Notes under the pieces: model-generated
Told to the model about the DNA's origin: nothing
The model's database searches: none
Seen by the model: the letters and a program-made list of their open reading frames with translations, nothing else
Program-made: the position numbers and the translations under genes
Shown: one piece after another, positions 31,769 through 40,371 of the stretch
How positions within the stretch are numbered: position 1 is the stretch's first letter
Layout of the letters: every line of letters begins with the position of its first letter
Source of the DNA: Alphaproteobacteria bacterium
Lineage (GTDB): Bacteria > Pseudomonadota > Alphaproteobacteria > GCA-2746255
Direction: 5' to 3'
Length of the DNA: 64,000 bases
NCBI GenBank assembly: GCA_965249135.1
Contig: OZ252220.1
Coordinates: 1 to 64,000, forward strand

Positions 31769-32542
31769 TTACGCACCGGACTTCGATCCGCCCGAACCGC
31801 CGGGGGCGAGGCCTTTGAAGATCTCCATCGGCAACGGCAGCACGATCGTCGATGTGTGATCACCGGCAATCTCATGCAACGCCTCGAGATAGCGAAGCTG
31901 CATGGCCTGGGGCTGCGTAGACAGGATCTGCGCGGCCTCGACCAGCTTCTGGGCAGCCTGTTGCTCGCCTTCCGCATTGATGATCTTGGCGCGGCGAACA
32001 CGCTCGGCTTCTGCCTGCTTCGCGATGGCGCGCACCATGCTTTCGTCGATGTCCACGTGCTTGATCTCGACATTCGCAACCTTGATGCCCCAACTGTCGG
32101 TTTGAACGTCCAGGATTTCCTGAATATCCCGGTTCAGCTTGTCCCGCTCCGACAGCATCTCATCCAGATCGTGTTTGCCAAGCACCGAGCGCAACGTCGT
32201 TTGGGCAAGCTGGCTGGTTGCGATCATGAAGCTTTCGACCTGGATCACGGCACGTTCCGGATCGACGACTCGAAAATAAAGGACCGCGTTTACCTTCACG
32301 GAAACATTGTCCCGCGAGATCACGTCCTGGGTCGGCACGTCGAGGACGATCGTCCGCGTATCGACGCGTACGGTTTGCTGGATGAACGGGATGACGATGA
32401 TCAGCCCAGGCCCCTTCACGCTGGTAAAACGCCCCAGCGTAAAGATGACGCCGCGCTCGTATTCCCGGTAAATCTTGATCGCCGAAGCGAGAAAGATGAC
32501 AACAAAAAATAGAAGAACTGCGTAGATGATCATGTTCATCAT
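31769..32542 (-). CDS. SPFH/stomatin-like (slipin) protein
   Basis: [47 protein letters not shown]. Confidence 0.92.
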
Positions 32543-32558
32543 TTAACTCCTCCCCGGA

Positions 32559-33971
32559 TTACGTCGAGGCAACGATTAAGGTAAGGCCCCGCCTTTCAAT
32601 GACTTTCACGCTATCACCCGGCACGAAGCCGCGATCGGCCTCCGCCTGCCAGCTTTCCCCATGGACGAGGACCCGGCCGGTCCTGCCGGTCCAGTCGATC
32701 ACCTCGCCCTCGATTCCAATCATCTCCTCCTTGCCGGTGACGACCGGGCGGCGATGGGCACGGACCGCCATGGCGAGCACGATGGCCAAAAGGCCGGCGC
32801 TCACCGCCGTCGTGCCGATGATCACCGGCCAGGAAAGACCAAGGCCGGGCACATCCGTGTCGAACAGAAGCGTCGCCCCGATCAGGAAGGATGCCGTGCC
32901 GCCCAGACCCAGAATGCCGAAGGATGGCACGAAGGCTTCGGCGACCATCAGGGCGATGCCAAGGAGAATGAGGGCTACCCCCGCATAGTCAACCGGAAGC
33001 ACGTGCATCGCATAGAGCCCGATGATGAGGCTGATAGCGCCGATCGTGCCCGGATAGATGGATCCGGGATTGATGAATTCGAAGATGATTCCGTACATGC
33101 CGATCAGCATCAGGATAAAGGCGACGTTCGGATTCGTAATCACGGCGAGAAGATTCGTCCGCCAGTCCGGCTCCAGGGTTTCCGTCGCGAGGCCGGCGCT
33201 GGCAAGCGTTCTTTCCCCGCCAGGCACGCTGACCGTCCGCCCATCCGCCTTGGCAAGCAGATCGCTTAAGTCCGTTGCCACGAAGTCGATGACCTTTGCC
33301 GCTTCCGCCTCGCTGGCAGCCAGGCTTACCGCCTCGCGCACCGCCTTTTCCGCCCATTCCACATTGCGGCCACGCAGTTCGGCGAGGCTTCGGATATAGG
33401 CGGCGGCGTCATTCAGGATCTTTGCCTCCATCGCATCCCGGCTTTCCTCCGCGGCTGCGGCGCGCGTCGTCTCCAGGGTGCTTTCCTTAAGTGGGACGAT
33501 GTTGGGCGGCGGCTTCTTCTCTTCTTCCCCTTCTTTTTCCTTCGGGAATGGCAGCGGCTGTCGGCCGCCGCCGATCCTGACCGGCGTCGCCGCGCCCAGA
33601 TTCGTACCCGGCGCCATGGCGGCGATGTGGCTGGCATAAAGAATGTAGGTGCCGGCACTTGCCGCGCGTGCACCGCCCGGGGCGACGAAGGTGGCAACCG
33701 GAACTACCGAGGTGAGGATCGCCTGAATGATCTCCCGCATGCTGGTGTCGAGACCGCCCGGCGTGTCCATCCGAAGGATGACAAGCGATGCGCCACGAAC
33801 CCGCGCGACGTCGAGGCTGCGGGTCACGTAATCGCTGATCGCAGGTCCGATCGGTCCCTTGATATCGAGGAGAAGGGCGATGCCCTGAGGCTCAGGCTTC
33901 GTCTCGGCCGGGAGCTGCGATGGGAGAAGAAGCGCAAGACCAAGGAGGCACCCGTAGAAGGTGAATCGAAA
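32559..33971 (-). pseudogene. nfeD: NfeD membrane serine protease, body of gene separated from its first codons by IS1595
   Basis: DTPGG, AASAG, NLGAA motifs, TM region, C-terminal OB fold; removing the IS restores MHLCGLRWFRFTFYGCLL.. from ATG 36514. Confidence 0.85.
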
Positions 33972-33993
33972 GGGAATTATATACTTGACTCCC

Positions 33994-34560
33994 TTAAGCC
34001 AGAATTGGCTTGCCGTTCTTGATGATGATACCAGGCATTGAGTAGGCCGCGCACCCCTTCAAAATTGTCGCCGGTTTTTTGACCCCGAAGGTATGTGTTC
34101 GACCCCCTTGGCCCTCCTTGGCTTTGCTCCCTTCATATTTCCAATTATCGGAAACAAGGAACGGCACATCTACCCGCCACACAACGACCGAGAAGCCCGG
34201 TTTCATCGTTTGAGTAGGGTCAACGAGATAACGCCAAATTACATACCATCCGGCATGATTGTAGTGCGACTGCAAAGCCCACGGGCGCGTCGTACCCTTG
34301 GATTCCAAAGCGTGTTCCGGCGGCGGATTGAGTTTCCCATTTAGCGAAAGGTCGGGGAACCGCTGGGCGGCTATATCGGGATGTTTGTGCTTCTTATACG
34401 GACTGACGGCATGCAGCCCCTTGGTCCCCATAATACCGACGACCGCACTAAAGACATTCGCCTGCTCGAAATATATGTCGATGAGTTCGGCCGTCTCTTT
34501 CTCGACGTAATCAACGGCTTTCTCGATGTGATTTAGCTTGAGTCCGCTGGGTAATGGCAT
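33994..34560 (-). CDS. Putative type II restriction endonuclease (PD-(D/E)xK)
   Basis: RFPDL..ALESKG motif; overlaps methyltransferase 3' end; stop abuts the IR. Confidence 0.6.
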   Translation of the reverse strand: MPLPSGLKLNHIEKAVDYVEKETAELIDIYFEQANVFSAVVGIMGTKGLHAVSPYKKHKHPDIAAQRFPDLSLNGKLNPPPEHALESKGTTRPWALQSHYNHAGWYVIWRYLVDPTQTMKPGFSVVVWRVDVPFLVSDNWKYEGSKAKEGQGGRTHTFGVKKPATILKGCAAYSMPGIIIKNGKPILA

Positions 34561-35503
34561 CAGGCGGCGTGTATTTTGCGAGTGAAGGGATGGCCTTTTT
34601 GGCCATGGCAAAATATGCCGAATCCTTCTCGATTCCAATGCTGTAATAGCCAACGGCTGTCGCCGCTGCGATGGTAGCCCCCGATCCCATGAACGGGTCT
34701 AGGATCACGCCCTTTCCCAAGGGCAGCATTGCCCGGACAATTTGGCGCATAAAGGCTTGCGGCTTAAGGGAGGGATGCCGCGCTATTTCACGCTCGCCGT
34801 TGCGGGTTGGGGAAGACCGGATCACGTCTCCAAACGGCTCGTCGCTGGAAATGCGCCTTAGTCCGCCCGCGCCCCATTTTCTCAAGTTGTCCTGCACGCG
34901 TCCTTCTATGGGCTTTCTGAACAGTCCCCACGGCTCCCATGCGGAACGCGGCATTACCGATACATCGGAAAATTCGTTATGGGCGTTCTTTGGCCGGTCG
35001 CCGCCACGCAGCGTTTGGACCATGCGAATAATCTCGCCGCGCTTCTCGAAACCGGCTGCCAGCATCGGAGCATAGACAAATTGCGAAAGCAGAGGATGCG
35101 TTGCAATCACAACATGGCCGCCCGGCACCACGATTCGCATGGACCGCTTGGCAAAATTCTCAAAGAACGCACCGAGTGCCTCTTTGTCCGCATCGCCCAA
35201 CACTGTGAATCTTGGAAGCGGGCTGCGCTTGTACCCGTCCAAGGCTGGCGGATGCCGCCATACGCCGCCGCGACCGTTATGCAGTTTTTCCTTTTCCGCC
35301 GCCGAGTATTCCTTGAGCCCGTATGGAGGGTCGGTAACTATCGCATGGACGGATTTGCTTTTGCGTTTCGCCATCCAGGCAAACGCATCATCGTGAAAAA
35401 TCGTGTACCTACCTTGCTGCAAGGCAGTGGCGCGGTTTTTCGTGGGGCTGTAGGAAAGAATCGTGTCCGCGAAAGCATCAAGCTCGGTATGCCGCGATGT
35501 CAT
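34511..35503 (-). CDS. Beta-class N4C/N6A DNA methyltransferase
   Basis: VTDPPY precedes HPSLKP and LDPFMGSG. Confidence 0.92.
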   Translation of the reverse strand: MTSRHTELDAFADTILSYSPTKNRATALQQGRYTIFHDDAFAWMAKRKSKSVHAIVTDPPYGLKEYSAAEKEKLHNGRGGVWRHPPALDGYKRSPLPRFTVLGDADKEALGAFFENFAKRSMRIVVPGGHVVIATHPLLSQFVYAPMLAAGFEKRGEIIRMVQTLRGGDRPKNAHNEFSDVSVMPRSAWEPWGLFRKPIEGRVQDNLRKWGAGGLRRISSDEPFGDVIRSSPTRNGEREIARHPSLKPQAFMRQIVRAMLPLGKGVILDPFMGSGATIAAATAVGYYSIGIEKDSAYFAMAKKAIPSLAKYTPPDAITQRTQAKSHRESR

Positions 35504-36414
35504 GCGGTCAATTCCTTGTATGTGATTCTGGGACCGAAGGACGCAGATACCAACCTCGCGAGTCGTTCCAAAGTGTGATGCTTCACATTGCCGTCGTTAA
35601 GGCGGAATGTAAATTCATCCACATAGCGGTGCAGATGTTTTTCACTGGCGTGATGGTAAACACCGTTCAATCCGCGCTTCATTACCACCCACACGCTTTC
35701 TATGTCGTTGGTGTGAACGTTCCCTCGAACATATTCCCCGGCACTATGGCGGACTGTTTCGTGGTTGTAGAATTGACCAATGCCCCTGTAGCCGCCGTGA
35801 TCGTCAGTATGAAGCGTCGCGCCAACCGCCACGTGCTCATGAATAGTAGATTGAAGCGTGTCCGCATCCGTATCCTTGACCGGCTTGGCCTTGGTTCGCC
35901 CGCCGCGCTCGCGCATTCCAATAACCGGCATTTTCCCGACTGGGCCGCGTCCGGCACGGAGTTTCTTCTTGGAGTGCTTGTTGCGTTCCTTGCCGCCCAC
36001 GTAGGTTTCATCCACAGCCACGATTCCGCTTAGAACCGATGGATCATTGCCACATGCTTCGCGCAAGCGGCCAAGGATAAACCACGCTGTTTTTTGCGTG
36101 ACGCCGATCTCCTTGCCCAGTTGAAGGCTGGAGACGCCCTTGCGGGCCGTCATAAGGAGGCACATCGCCAAAAGCCACTTATCGAGCCCCACATGCGACC
36201 TCTCGAAAATCGTGCCTGTGCGGACTGTAAAATCCTTCTTGCAGGCATTGCAGCGATAGAAGCCCTTCGGTCGGGGCGTGAGGCGCTTTGCTTCTTCACA
36301 GTGAGGGCAGATCACGCCATCCGGCCAGCGGCGCGATTCAAAGTAGGTTTTTGCAGCGTCGGCGTTGGGGTACAATTTGGAAAGCTGATAAAGGCTGATG
36401 GTCGAACGAGACAT
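35500..36414 (-). CDS. IS1595-family transposase
   Basis: CPHC..CNAC zinc finger, HTH, VDETYVGG, HTDD, HTNDIESVW, YVDEFTFR.N. Confidence 0.95.
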   Translation of the reverse strand: MSRSTISLYQLSKLYPNADAAKTYFESRRWPDGVICPHCEEAKRLTPRPKGFYRCNACKKDFTVRTGTIFERSHVGLDKWLLAMCLLMTARKGVSSLQLGKEIGVTQKTAWFILGRLREACGNDPSVLSGIVAVDETYVGGKERNKHSKKKLRAGRGPVGKMPVIGMRERGGRTKAKPVKDTDADTLQSTIHEHVAVGATLHTDDHGGYRGIGQFYNHETVRHSAGEYVRGNVHTNDIESVWVVMKRGLNGVYHHASEKHLHRYVDEFTFRLNDGNVKHHTLERLARLVSASFGPRITYKELTA

Positions 36415-36482
36415 GGAACAACTCCCTAAGTGATAGTAGATAACTACCCTTTTTTTGTGAGGGAGTCAAGTATATAGTTCCC

Positions 36483-36514
36483 AATCGAAACCACCGAAGA
36501 CCACAGAGATGCAT
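36483..36514 (-). pseudogene. nfeD: Detached 5' end of nfeD
   Basis: GGAGG RBS then ATG CAT CTC TGT..TTT CGA; joins the nfeD body in frame across the target duplication. Confidence 0.8.
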
Positions 36515-36899
36515 GCCGGGAGAACCTCCATCCCCATCCTAGCAAATCGCCCCAAGGGCGGCTCGATGACCTCGCGCGCGTTGGGTCCGCGGCCACCGAG
36601 GCCGGTTGGTTCACCGGCGGCCTTCGATCCCTGGGAAGGGCTCGAATCGCCTGATTTTAAAGACTTTTCGGCAGAAGGACATGGCTTTCGAGGCCGCTTG
36701 CGTATGGTAAAGACCCGCCTCGCCGGTTGTTTCAAATCTGATAGAAATTATTGCGGATTTCAGGTAGGTTTTTGAACAGCTTAGGGAATTATCCCCCTCC
36801 TTCCACGGCAACCACGGGTCCTTCCACGGCAACCACGGGAGGGGAGGTTCTTGTGCAGGGATGAATCCAGTTGGGCGGATGCCCAAAAGGGAGAACGTC

Positions 36900-37190
36900 A
36901 TGAAGACAATCCACGTCATGAAGACACTGAACATGAAGACACTGAACAAGGCGCTTTTCGCCTTTCTCCTCGTCGTGCCGTTCGTGCTGGCCGATGCCGC
37001 GCGGGCACAGGCAGTCGATCCGACGCTCGCGACAGGCGTCCCGGGATTGGTAGGTGGTGACATCCCGCAAATGCTAGGTGAAGGCACCATCGTAAAGGTA
37101 CCTTTTGGTCCCAGCTACGTTCAGATGCCGGACGGCAGCACGCTGCCGCTTCCGTATGCCGATGCGTTGGATCGAATAGAGCGGACGTAA
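36900..37190 (+). CDS. Small secreted hypothetical protein
   Basis: GGGAG RBS, three in-frame MKT starts from duplications, signal peptide ending ARA|Q. Confidence 0.6.
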   Translation: MKTIHVMKTLNMKTLNKALFAFLLVVPFVLADAARAQAVDPTLATGVPGLVGGDIPQMLGEGTIVKVPFGPSYVQMPDGSTLPLPYADALDRIERT

Positions 37191-37482
37191 TCGAATAGAG
37201 CGGACGTAGGAGAGACTCGAAACCGTATAGGCCAAGAAAGTAGAAGGTGGTCACTGCCATCGCGGACTGGATGATCATGGCCGTGAGATAAAGCTGGGCC
37301 TTGCCCTCCGTATTCCAGCCGAGATAGGCGAGATAGATGAACAAGCCGGTCAGAAAAACGGCAAGCCCATCCCCAATGGCAAATAGCCCCGCCGCAATAC
37401 GCGGCGAAAACGCCTTACTGCGCGGAAGTGCGAACGCGTTCATCGCTATGTCCGATCGGGAAAGATCGAGATTTTCCGCCAT
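37190..37482 (-). pseudogene. Probable N-terminal fragment of a WcaJ-like polyprenyl glycosylphosphotransferase
   Basis: Two TM helices ending FLGLYGF..LLRP, then runs into a 19-bp duplication and the antisense of the neighbour; no catalytic domain. Confidence 0.4.
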
Positions 37483-37689
37483 GAAGACCTCTGTGTCTGC
37501 CGCCGCTGGAGAAAGCCATTTTTCTTTATCCAACAAGGTCCTAGCTTACAGGAAAAGGCCGTCGCACGGTGGCGAAAAATGGGCCCGGGCCCGTCTTTAC
37601 CTTCACTCCCCCGAGGAGGGTTTGTGCTTCTGCCAATTTTCCACGCTAAGATTAACTATGTTGATGAAAGCTGCAACGAAGAAAAGCTC

Positions 37690-40371
37690 ATGCAAGCGGA
37701 ATGGAGTCTGTCACGTTTGCTAATGGGGATGACGGAAAGGAACGACCATCCGGCCATCCTCGTCCTGCGTGGCGACAGCATTGAAAGTCATTCCTATAGA
37801 GACATCGCCGTCGCCTCGCGGCGATTGGGTCGCGGCCTGGCGAAGACCGGCATTCGCCCGGACGATGCGGTCGGTATTTGGGCGCCCAACCTTCCGGAGT
37901 GGATCATCCTTCGCTTTGGGATCGGCCTGGCGCGCGGCCTCGCCGTCGCAATCGATGATCTGGCAACGGAAGCCGAAGCCCGGACAATCCTTTCCGACAG
38001 CGATTGCCGGTTGCTGTTCACGACGGAGGAACACCTTCCGGCGGTCCGCAGCTTTTTTGCGGAAGGCGAGGGGCCCGACGTCTTTCTCCTCTCGGATGAC
38101 AAGAGCTATGGGAAAGACTTTCTCCTCTCGGATGACAAGAGCTATGGGAAAGACTGGAGGGAGTTGCTTGCGGAAACAGATGTCGAATTACCGCCGACGG
38201 ATATCCATTCGCCTGCGATGCTGGTCTATACCTCCGGTACTACCGGAAATCCGAAGTCCTTTGCACTCACGGAGAAACACCTCGCCGTCAATGTAGAGGC
38301 ACTGACGGCCGAGGGTCTGGTTACGACTTCCGACCGGGCAGTGTTGCCACTGCCTTTGCACCACGTCTATCCCTTCGTCATTGGAATCCTGACGCCGTTC
38401 TCCTGTGGCGCGACGGTCATCTTCCCGGAAACGGTTTCCGGCCCCGACCTCGTTCGGGCCATTCGCTTAGGTCGCGCCAGCATCCTCGTCGGCGTGCCGC
38501 GCCTTTACGCCGCGATCGTTTCCGCACTGGAAAGCCGTGTCGCGGATCGGGGCCGGCTTGCGGCGGTGCTTTTCCACCTGCTCCTTCGTCTCTCGATCTG
38601 GGGACGCCGCCGGCTCGGCCTTCGGTTAGGCCGACTGTTTTTCCGGGGCGTGCACGCCCGCCTTGGCTCGAACCTGCACCTCCTGGCTTCCGGTGGCGCG
38701 CGGTTCGAGGCGAGCCTCGTTTGGAAGCTGGAAGGTCTTGGCTGGGAGGTCTTGAGTGGCTATGGCCTTGCCGAGACCGGCTCGATCTTTACGGCCAACC
38801 TCCGGGGCCGCCAGCGGCTGGGCAGCGAGGGGTTGCCGCTGCCGGGTGGCGAACTTCGCATCGTGGACCCGGATGAAGACGGTGTCGGCGAAATTCAGCT
38901 AAAAGGCCCGAGCGTCTTTGCCGGCTATCGAAACAACCCCGAGGCCAACCAGACCGCCTTTACCGAGGATAAGTGGTTCCGAACCGGCGATCTCGGTTAC
39001 CGGGACGAGGATGGCTATCTCTATGTGACCGGTCGTGCCAAGGAGATGATCGTGCTTGGCGGGGCCAGGAATGTCTTTCCGGAGGGGGTCGAGCAGGTCT
39101 ATGGACAAAGCCCTTATATTGCCGAAATCGCCGTGCTGGAGCGAGCCGGCAAGCTGGTGGCGCTTGTCCGACCGGATTTCGATGCGATCCAGAAAAGCAT
39201 CAGCGCACGCGTCGAAGACGTGCTGCGTATAACCCTTTCCGAACTTTCCCAACGGCTTCCCTCCTTTCAACGCATCGCCGGCTACGCCATCGTTCGCGAG
39301 ACGTTGCCGTGCACCCGTCTTGGCAAATACAAGCGCTATCAGCTGCCGGAGATTTACGAGAACGCGCTTGCCGGCCGCAGGGCCGTAGGGCCGGCAAGGC
39401 TCACGGACGAGGACGAGGCGCTCTTGGCGAATTCGCCCGTTAGGGAAGTCTGGGAATGGCTCCACCAGCGCTTCCCGGGAAAAGAGATCGCGCTTGAGAC
39501 CAGTCCCCAACTCGACCTGGAAATCGATTCCCTCGACTGGGTGAATCTCTCCCTTGAACTTGAGAGCAGGTTTGCCATCAAGCTCGCCGAGGCGGACTTG
39601 GCGGGGGTCCAGTCGATCCGGGAATTTCTCGAACTCACGAGAAGTGCGGAACCGGCACCCGCCCACCCGCCGGGGGAAGCCTTGGCAGCCGAACTCACCC
39701 CCGACCAAGCGGCCTGGCTTGCCCCCACCGGCATGGCGGCGACCTTTCTCGGGATTTGTCTCTACGGCCTTAACCGGCTTCTCGTGCGCCTTTTCTTCCG
39801 CCTTAAGGTCGAAGGCCTCGAGAACCTGCCAAGGGAAGGGGCCTATGTCGTCGCCGCGAATCACGCAAGCGACCTCGATCCGCTCGTGATTGCGGCGGCC
39901 TTTCCGTTACGGGCCATGCGACGCATTTACTGGGGAGGCGAGGTGAGCCGGCTCTTTACCTCCGGGCTCAAGGCGCGGCTTGCGCGGGCGATCCACATCT
40001 TTCCGGTGGATGAACGGGCCCCAGGGACGGTGCTCGCCATGGCCTCAAACGTGCTGGCTGCGGGCAACGCGCTTGTCTGGTTCCCCGAATCCTGGCGCTC
40101 GCCGACCGGCGAGCTGCAGCGTTTTCTTCCCGGCATAGGCAGGCTGCTCGAGCAATCCGCCGTGCCCGTATTGCCGGCCTATATTCAGGGTACGTTCAAA
40201 GCCATGTCCCGCGACCGACGGCTGCCTCGGCCGTACCCCGTGCGCGTCATCCTGGGCAAGCCGTTGGATCCCGCCGGCCTCTTGGAAGCGGGCAAGGGGG
40301 ATACGGCCTACGCTCGGATCGCAAGCGCGTTGAAGGAAAAGGTGGCCGAGCTGCGTCCGGAGACCGGCTAG
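37690..40371 (+). CDS. Long-chain acyl-CoA/ACP ligase fused to carrier domain and PlsC-type acyltransferase
   Basis: YTSGTTGNPK, GYGLAET, FRTGDLG; IDSL phosphopantetheine motif; NHASDLD and FPE acyltransferase motifs. Confidence 0.9.
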   Translation: MQAEWSLSRLLMGMTERNDHPAILVLRGDSIESHSYRDIAVASRRLGRGLAKTGIRPDDAVGIWAPNLPEWIILRFGIGLARGLAVAIDDLATEAEARTILSDSDCRLLFTTEEHLPAVRSFFAEGEGPDVFLLSDDKSYGKDFLLSDDKSYGKDWRELLAETDVELPPTDIHSPAMLVYTSGTTGNPKSFALTEKHLAVNVEALTAEGLVTTSDRAVLPLPLHHVYPFVIGILTPFSCGATVIFPETVSGPDLVRAIRLGRASILVGVPRLYAAIVSALESRVADRGRLAAVLFHLLLRLSIWGRRRLGLRLGRLFFRGVHARLGSNLHLLASGGARFEASLVWKLEGLGWEVLSGYGLAETGSIFTANLRGRQRLGSEGLPLPGGELRIVDPDEDGVGEIQLKGPSVFAGYRNNPEANQTAFTEDKWFRTGDLGYRDEDGYLYVTGRAKEMIVLGGARNVFPEGVEQVYGQSPYIAEIAVLERAGKLVALVRPDFDAIQKSISARVEDVLRITLSELSQRLPSFQRIAGYAIVRETLPCTRLGKYKRYQLPEIYENALAGRRAVGPARLTDEDEALLANSPVREVWEWLHQRFPGKEIALETSPQLDLEIDSLDWVNLSLELESRFAIKLAEADLAGVQSIREFLELTRSAEPAPAHPPGEALAAELTPDQAAWLAPTGMAATFLGICLYGLNRLLVRLFFRLKVEGLENLPREGAYVVAANHASDLDPLVIAAAFPLRAMRRIYWGGEVSRLFTSGLKARLARAIHIFPVDERAPGTVLAMASNVLAAGNALVWFPESWRSPTGELQRFLPGIGRLLEQSAVPVLPAYIQGTFKAMSRDRRLPRPYPVRVILGKPLDPAGLLEAGKGDTAYARIASALKEKVAELRPETG
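38082..38153. repeat. Perfect in-frame 36-bp tandem duplication
   Basis: FLLSDDKSYGKD encoded twice with identical DNA. Confidence 0.95.

Follow-up and report, generated by a model that had tools for sequence, protein, structure and literature searches.

The window analysed here is a stretch of 64,000 nt from contig OZ252220.1 of an alphaproteobacterial genome (GCA_965249135.1), and it carries a compact three-gene unit that we call element A, for which positions in the window serve as coordinates throughout. Element A occupies 2,511 bp (33972-36482) and is composed of overlapping minus-strand genes for an IS1595-family transposase, a DNA methyltransferase (methylase) and a 188-aa protein, the latter a putative type II restriction endonuclease. 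Comparison of the two ends defined 22-nt inverted ends, with the nuclease-side copy GGGAATTATATACTTGACTCCC on the plus strand at 33972-33993 and the transposase-side copy on the minus strand at 36461-36482 (as the reverse complement, GGGAACTATATACTTGACTCCC), which agree at 21 of the 22 positions. Immediately outside lie two copies of an 8-bp target-site duplication, AATCGAAA, at 33964-33971 and 36483-36490, identical at 8 of 8 positions.

The first gene encodes the 304-aa transposase (35500-36414, minus strand) and is separated from its inverted end by a 46-nt leader (36415-36460), in which direct reading finds GGGAG 8 nt before the ATG. The gene for the 330-aa methylase (34511-35503, minus strand) follows with its ATG overlapping the transposase TGA as ATGA, and the sequence AAGGA precedes this ATG. 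The third open reading frame (ORF; protein P0001, 33994-34560, minus strand) overlaps the 3' end of the methylase gene by 50 nt, and its stop codon (33994-33996) is flush with the left inverted end. An alternative TTG start of this ORF is also open and would yield 219 aa; we place the start at the ATG at 34560 because homologues show it, giving 188 aa. Coding sequence thus takes up 2,421 of the 2,511 bases, and the ORF list and Pfam revealed no further ORF with a family match inside the ends. The G+C content of element A is 54.5%, compared with 60.3% for the 2.12-Mb genome.

A previous sequence-only reading of this stretch had proposed a single packed operon with the ATGA overlap, a last stop codon touching the inverted repeat, repeats differing at one base and a perfect 8-bp duplication, and each of these was reproduced. 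Its statement that the system has no controller is likewise correct because the three genes leave no DNA for one. The alphaproteobacterial SOS box GAAC-N7-GAAC was absent from 33672-36782 (the element with 300 nt on either side). The same reading held the insertion to be recent, which is plausible and stays undated because imperfect ends are normal for insertion sequences (ISs).

The transposase and the methylase

The transposase ORF is full-length and its domain matches are complete. PF12762 is matched at 4.3e-45 over profile positions 2-153 of 153, the zinc ribbon PF12760 at 1.8e-10, and the NCBIfam model NF033547, named 'IS1595 family transposase', at 2e-58 with 197.8 bits against a cut-off of 75. 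An 8-bp target duplication is a trait of the IS1595 family. Element A combines a zinc ribbon and a DDE transposase domain with short inverted ends and the 8-bp duplication, all of which characterise IS1595 elements, and the family assignment of the sequence-only reading stands.

The methylase matches PF01555 at 8.6e-19 over the entire profile (positions 1-221 of 221) and the PADLOC type II model PDLC03215 (MTase_II) at 9.1e-117. Its translation contains DPPY ahead of FMGSG, the order of motifs that defines the beta class, and DPPY hints at adenine methylation; judging from this motif, the enzyme most likely forms N6-methyladenine. The nearest solved relatives by sequence are the CcrM, DpnA, MboIIA and RsrI methylases, and these are related over the part binding S-adenosylmethionine only. 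Close relatives of the methylase are annotated just as 'site-specific DNA-methyltransferase (adenine-specific)' or 'DNA modification methylase', and the annotations of 120 close transposase relatives read just 'IS1595 family transposase' or 'transposase-like protein'. All these names are generic and point to no recognition site.

The 188-residue protein and its predicted fold

The third protein belongs to an abundant family that is unnamed in any model library searched (Pfam, NCBIfam, PADLOC and PHROGs). It has 2,804 relatives at E<=1e-3. Identity is 65-100% for the best 120, almost all of which have a length of 188-216 aa, and clustering at 50% reduced the family to 189 representatives, mostly fragments. 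We therefore consider the family compact and highly conserved. An alignment of 130 sequences, including the most divergent full-length members, shows P69, D70, K88 and G104 to be invariant and E86 to be kept in at least 90% of the sequences, which together constitute a PD...ExK motif with D70, E86 and K88 as catalytic candidates. The 'PD..ESK' motif noticed in the sequence-only reading does exist; family conservation places it at F68-P69-D70...E86-S87-K88 and not at H60-P61-D62. A tblastn search of 72,556 plasmid and 50,697 phage records with the nuclease returned no match.

We also considered an identity with the ScaI family (PF09569), which a protein atlas offered as a lead at rank 15 with a score of 0.92, 21% of the members of that cluster carrying PF09569. 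None of 33 members of the present family matches PF09569 at E<=10, so that Pfam does not support this identity.

The AlphaFold model of the 188-aa protein built from the 130 sequences has a pLDDT (predicted local distance difference test) of 93.6 and a pTM (predicted template modelling score) of 0.90. It supersedes a first model from 22 sequences, which reached a pLDDT of 65.7 with values below 50 in the catalytic region and gave no useful Foldseek match. In the final model, D70 directly precedes a strand (71-73), and the following strand (84-90) contains E86-K88. Comparison with 48,161 representative chains by VIA-align gave a top 10 made up entirely of type II restriction endonucleases, with Z-scores from 9.0 to 5.3. 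The closest is NaeI (Z 9.0; 141 residues aligned, root-mean-square deviation 3.6), followed by the chain 3ndh, which we take to be ThaI (Z 8.7), SfiI (7.8), SwaI (7.3), NhoI (6.8), DpnI (6.2), BglI (6.0), NlaIV (5.5), EcoRV (5.4) and HincII (5.3). The first ten rows of a Foldseek search of 350,542 chains are restriction enzymes as well. The third ORF is thus predicted to have a restriction-nuclease fold, in line with its assignment as a nuclease in the sequence-only reading.

The likeness is to the EcoRV-like (blunt-cutter) PD-(D/E)xK lineage, including NaeI, 3ndh, SfiI, SwaI, EcoRV and HincII. It comprises the predicted fold, which for the top four chains aligns over 133-157 residues with Z-scores of 7.3-9.0, as well as the position of the PD...ExK motif, its first part at the beginning of a strand and its second part inside the following strand. 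The sequences differ markedly, however, with 8-14% identity, and no sequence or profile search joins the families. Prediction of a homodimer scored 0.20 against a mark of 0.42, which is evidence neither way.

The methylase-nuclease module in other genomes

A scan with one genome per species identified 365 stretches encoding a relative of the nuclease, 80 of which were kept as loci. The loci are spread over Acidobacteriota, Alphaproteobacteria, Verrucomicrobiota, Myxococcota, Dormiibacterota and others, and their nucleases are 62-77% identical to that of the window. In 78 of the 80 loci, the gene immediately upstream, on the same strand, encodes a homologue of the window's methylase (49-73% identical), and we therefore regard the two genes as a conserved module. 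The pairing proposed in the sequence-only reading is well borne out by this linkage. Among the two exceptions, L038 starts 13 nt before the nuclease gene at a contig edge. The other (L026:458-1021) contains a truncated nuclease frame with no methylase in the 457 nt upstream; this is a single case on a 2-kb contig, and a broken nuclease without a methylase is what one would expect if the nuclease were toxic alone.

A transposase accompanies the pair in three of the 80 loci. L014, from a different genome, has the same gene order as element A, with a transposase 76%, a methylase 70% and a nuclease 74% identical to those of the window. The 22-nt ends of element A flank it on both sides, and the nuclease stop again abuts the end. 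L007 retains a C-terminal transposase remnant as well as an end beside the nuclease, where the nuclease stop also abuts the end, and L044 has an N-terminal transposase remnant with an end next to it. Contigs of equal length (8864, 8133 and 107487) among the hit lists hint that all three genes may occur side by side in further metagenomic copies. A tree was built from 78 nuclease sequences, three loci being left out by a length or stop filter; the four IS-linked nucleases all fall into one well-supported clade of 31 rows and are not monophyletic within it. The shared junction between nuclease stop and end speaks for a single capture, after which the transposase was lost several times; repeated capture seems less likely.

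Of 74 other loci, 6 have the SOS box GAAC-N7-GAAC no more than 300 nt upstream of the methylase. In L049, L060 and L064, a word of the form GAACAAAA..GAAC is found about 280 nt upstream of the methylase and matches the alphaproteobacterial SOS-box pattern. This SOS-box-like word recurs in one alphaproteobacterial subclade with transposase-free cassettes and is absent from element A.

Sister elements in the same genome

Searching the genome with the transposase of the window gave ten matches at eight loci, the other loci being 36-52% identical. Seven of the eight loci hold cargo between inverted ends, six of them with defence-type cargo. Four of the elements share the order transposase-methylase-nuclease: element A itself, with the methylase, the 188-aa nuclease and a duplication of 8/8, and elements B, C and D, which are three further restriction-modification operons. 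Element B (L104; genome positions 887984-890711, 2,728 bp, duplication 8/8) encodes an N6/N4 methylase and an endonuclease of the BglII family (PF09195 at 2.3e-33; PADLOC REase_II at 8.9e-86). Element C (L238; ~1281019-1283533, ~2.5 kb, duplication of ~7 bp) encodes a methylase (PDLC03271, 3.1e-80) and a nuclease recognised as REase_II (PDLC03487, 7.4e-41), the stop of which is next to the end. Since this order recurs with nucleases that models recognise, elements B and C support the interpretation of element A by analogy.

Element D (L105; 1511352-1515017, 3,666 bp) has 27-nt ends, a duplication of 7/8 and, after the transposase, a C5 methylase, an HNH nuclease, Vsr and an ORF of no assigned family. 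The remaining elements are more diverse. Element E (L106; 671449-674927, 3,479 bp, duplication 8/8) combines the transposase with a 745-aa protein matching the PADLOC candidate PDC-S46 (1.9e-256), a candidate defence ATPase. In element F (L107; ~1038830-1041277, ~2.4 kb), for which no duplication was found, the transposase is accompanied by a 545-aa fusion of a methylase with an Mrr-like nuclease domain. Element H (L108; 2029855-2032211, 2,357 bp, duplication 8/8) has a split transposase and cargo of no recognised family. The eighth locus, near recA, has a broken transposase with no detectable ends. Such a concentration of at least seven cargo-bearing IS1595 elements in one 2.1-Mb genome is new, and the seven of eight loci with cargo suggest that IS1595 elements merit a systematic census as carriers of defence genes.

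Two solo copies of the left 81 bases of element A, in which the nuclease gene contributes its last 59 bases and the inverted end the rest, are present at genome positions 1012173-1012253 and 1058920-1059000 (L003 and L002, ~1501-1581), each 100% identical to the window. Each resides inside a block of ~4.2 kb that is repeated at 99.8% identity (1011912-1016105 and 1058659-1063558) and starts at the 3' portion of a tRNA-Thr(GGT) gene, with element F between the two blocks. The two blocks look like related islands integrated in series.

Interpretation of element A

Taken together, these results make it likely that element A belongs to the transporter ISs (tISs) of the IS1595 family, with a compact type II restriction-modification module as its cargo. 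The restriction-modification part of this interpretation is supported by the predicted fold, the motif, the gene context and the sister elements. The three genes would form one co-directional overlapping operon, in which the transposase is followed by the methyltransferase and then by the endonuclease. The methylase would protect a short DNA site, and the 188-aa enzyme, probably a small, dimeric and Mg-dependent PD-(D/E)xK enzyme of an EcoRV/NaeI-like structural lineage, would cut the site when unmethylated. The transposase would move the whole unit via the 22-nt ends and generate the 8-bp duplications. We infer that the pair has enzymatic activity, sequence specificity and a role in phage defence. 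Some type II systems act as addiction modules, and post-segregational killing may likewise stabilise element A, which may still be competent for transposition. The placing of the methylase gene ahead of the nuclease gene may, as the sequence-only reading proposed, serve as an establishment delay.

Several observations weigh against this interpretation. At the level of sequence, the 188-aa protein has no match in the four model libraries, no restriction-enzyme model of Pfam was matched by 33 family members even at E<=10, and neither single-sequence nor profile searches of PDB sequences with this protein produced a link. At the level of structure, Foldseek gave no match at E<=1e-3 (the best being SfiI at 2.7e-2), and VIA-align Z-scores of 7-9 may reflect merely a common arrangement. 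The top neighbours also include DpnI and NhoI, which are methyl-directed enzymes and not classical methylase partners, and a common fold alone is no proof of cleavage or sequence specificity. Because even Z-scores of 7-8 may stem from a common arrangement, the case rests on the uniform top matches in combination with the motif and the gene context. As for expression, no Shine-Dalgarno-like sequence was found before the nuclease ATG, and a sigma-70 scan of 33800-36700 gave no promoter-like site. The hexamer TTGACT, reported in the sequence-only reading, does read inward, and it does so in both ends; it amounts to a -35-like hexamer only, and a promoter is not supported by the scan. As for mobility, element A is single-copy in the genome, and contigs of four sequencing runs of one sample contain neither a junction across the element nor an empty site over 33400-37000. 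With a single copy and no empty site or excision junction, mobility is read from the structure of the element only.

An alternative that we consider unlikely is that the 188-aa protein has a nuclease fold without being a restriction enzyme, and that the cargo is an orphan methylase with an accessory protein. The protein would then be a nicking or repair enzyme of the Vsr/MutH type, a methyl-directed nuclease, or an inactive DNA-binding partner by which the methylase is regulated or targeted. This would fit the lack of any matching restriction-enzyme sequence model and the presence of MutH (Z 5.0) among the structural neighbours along with DpnI and NhoI. It would also fit an identity of 62-86% across phyla, which is unusually high for a restriction enzyme. 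Against this alternative stand the retention of the catalytic-type residues D70, E86 and K88 across the family and a structural top 10 of restriction endonucleases throughout. The order of methylase and then nuclease in 78 of 80 loci, where the sole methylase-less copy is broken, is as expected for a toxic partner, and sister elements of like layout carry recognised type II enzymes. Furthermore, if a methyl-directed nuclease were linked to a methylase, it would turn on the host itself, unless the two enzymes recognised different sites.

A second alternative is that element A is a relic, in which cassette and IS are just neighbours or the element no longer moves, so that its cargo does not travel as a single transposon at present. 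This would suit the single copy, the missing empty site and junction, the 77 of 80 loci with the cassette but no transposase, the truncated transposases of L007 and L044 and the fact that the four IS-linked nuclease genes do not form one clade in the tree. We consider it very unlikely, since inverted ends and a perfect 8-bp duplication bracket all three genes, the transposase is complete, and L014 in another genome has the three genes between identical ends. In addition, element A, L014 and L007 all have the nuclease stop directly at the end, which points to one capture and then losses.

Further searches around element A gave the following results. No DNA match to element A was found in plasmids. 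Several different sequences adjoin position 33972 in the run contigs, as expected for a shared end sequence. A search for an empty site with the DNA of 32500-38000 gave no usable flank match in five genomes of the same genus. The neighbouring gene for an NfeD-like membrane protease (32559-33827, minus strand) shows 65-68% DNA identity to genomes of three other families, and none of the five same-genus genomes matched it; the region around the insertion may itself be variable.

Relation to known systems

Transporter ISs of the IS1595 family were reportedly described by Siguier, Gagnevin and Chandler in 2009. We found no report of a complete restriction-modification operon carried by an IS1595 element in a search of full texts that covered neither the 2009 IS1595 paper and the main reviews, which may describe such cargo, nor the entries of ISfinder and REBASE. 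The general kind to which element A belongs is already known, because both transporter ISs and transposon-like restriction-modification units are in print. What is new is element A as a member, together with a nuclease family that the model libraries searched do not name.

As outlined in the relevant passages of earlier work, a tIS is an IS with passenger genes and constitutes an established category (10.1101/2021.05.26.445724), and the passengers include regulators, methyltransferases and resistance genes (2025 review, PMC11891212). Element A resembles the tIS of the IS1595 family in its zinc-ribbon IS1595-type transposase, its short inverted repeats and the passengers inside the ends. The passengers named in those passages are regulators (ISNha5), methyltransferases (IS220, of the IS1380 family) and resistance genes, and the passages make no mention of an IS1595 element with a complete methylase-nuclease operon (10.1101/2021.05.26.445724; PMC11891212).

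Restriction-modification genes located between inverted repeats with 8-bp duplications were described by Furuta, Abe and Kobayashi (2010, PMC2853133), and the passages concerned show a likeness to element A in the imperfect terminal inverted repeats and the 8-bp duplication. The unit from Neisseria gonorrhoeae, with 26-bp repeats, even has a gene with a transposase motif (COG3677). According to these passages, however, this transposase-like gene is likely a derivative that has lost its activity, and the type IIG gene beside it is truncated, whereas the three genes of element A are intact (PMC2853133). The Xanthomonas unit described there has no transposase, unlike element A with its intact transposase in an overlapping operon (PMC2853133). 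The PaeR7I system is a further case in which the movement of restriction-modification genes is associated with insertion sequences; it is plasmid-borne and was followed in the laboratory, whereas the system of element A sits inside a single element with its own transposase (PMC3031569). On the transporter interpretation, element A would thus be a clean and intact example of a restriction-modification system travelling in a minimal transposon, and its compact set of three genes would lend itself to asking whether restriction-modification addiction stabilises a transposon.

Spread of the ends and of IS1595 cargo

A metagenome scan for a 20-nt pattern of the end gave at least 134 stretches, and the 75 loci fetched from these (L109-L183) share the end sequence of element A. 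They contain 27 distinct elements with two inverted copies of the end 0.7-2.3 kb apart, and the transposases of these elements are 50-68% identical to that of the window. The cargo of element A was found in none of the 27. The cargo ORFs of at least 140 aa in the metagenome elements have no mutual similarity at E<=1e-8, and most cargo ORFs are without a Pfam or PADLOC match. Recognised cargo comprises two C5 methylases, a Mom-family protein, a methylase fragment, a type I specificity-like protein and a SocA/Panacea antitoxin.

Within the class, an IS1595-type transposase is encoded in 32 of 121 sampled genomes. We inspected the neighbours of the transposase at one locus in each of 29 other genomes of the class. 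A methylase is directly beside the IS1595 transposase in three of the 29, namely L247 (with an HNH nuclease), L261 (MT-A70, with a BglII-family nuclease) and L267 (a C5 methylase). A few further loci, among them L241, L254 and L255, have defence-like genes beside the IS1595 transposase, such as KilA-N with an OLD-type TOPRIM domain, SIR2 or AAA_13.

It is conceivable, although we consider it doubtful, that IS1595-type transporters are a specialised and widespread shuttle for minimal defence modules rather than occasional carriers, and that a small genome may draw most of its restriction arsenal from them. In this view, one conserved set of ends serves transposases only 50-68% identical to each other, each element having different cargo. 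The recurring gene order, in which the nuclease stop is flush with the end, would tie both establishment, with the methylase coming first, and addiction to the expression of the transposon. The restriction-modification pair would then stabilise the transposon, and the transposon would spread the pair.

Among the metagenome loci, L150 is a 703-bp element that has no transposase and carries a methylase fragment only.

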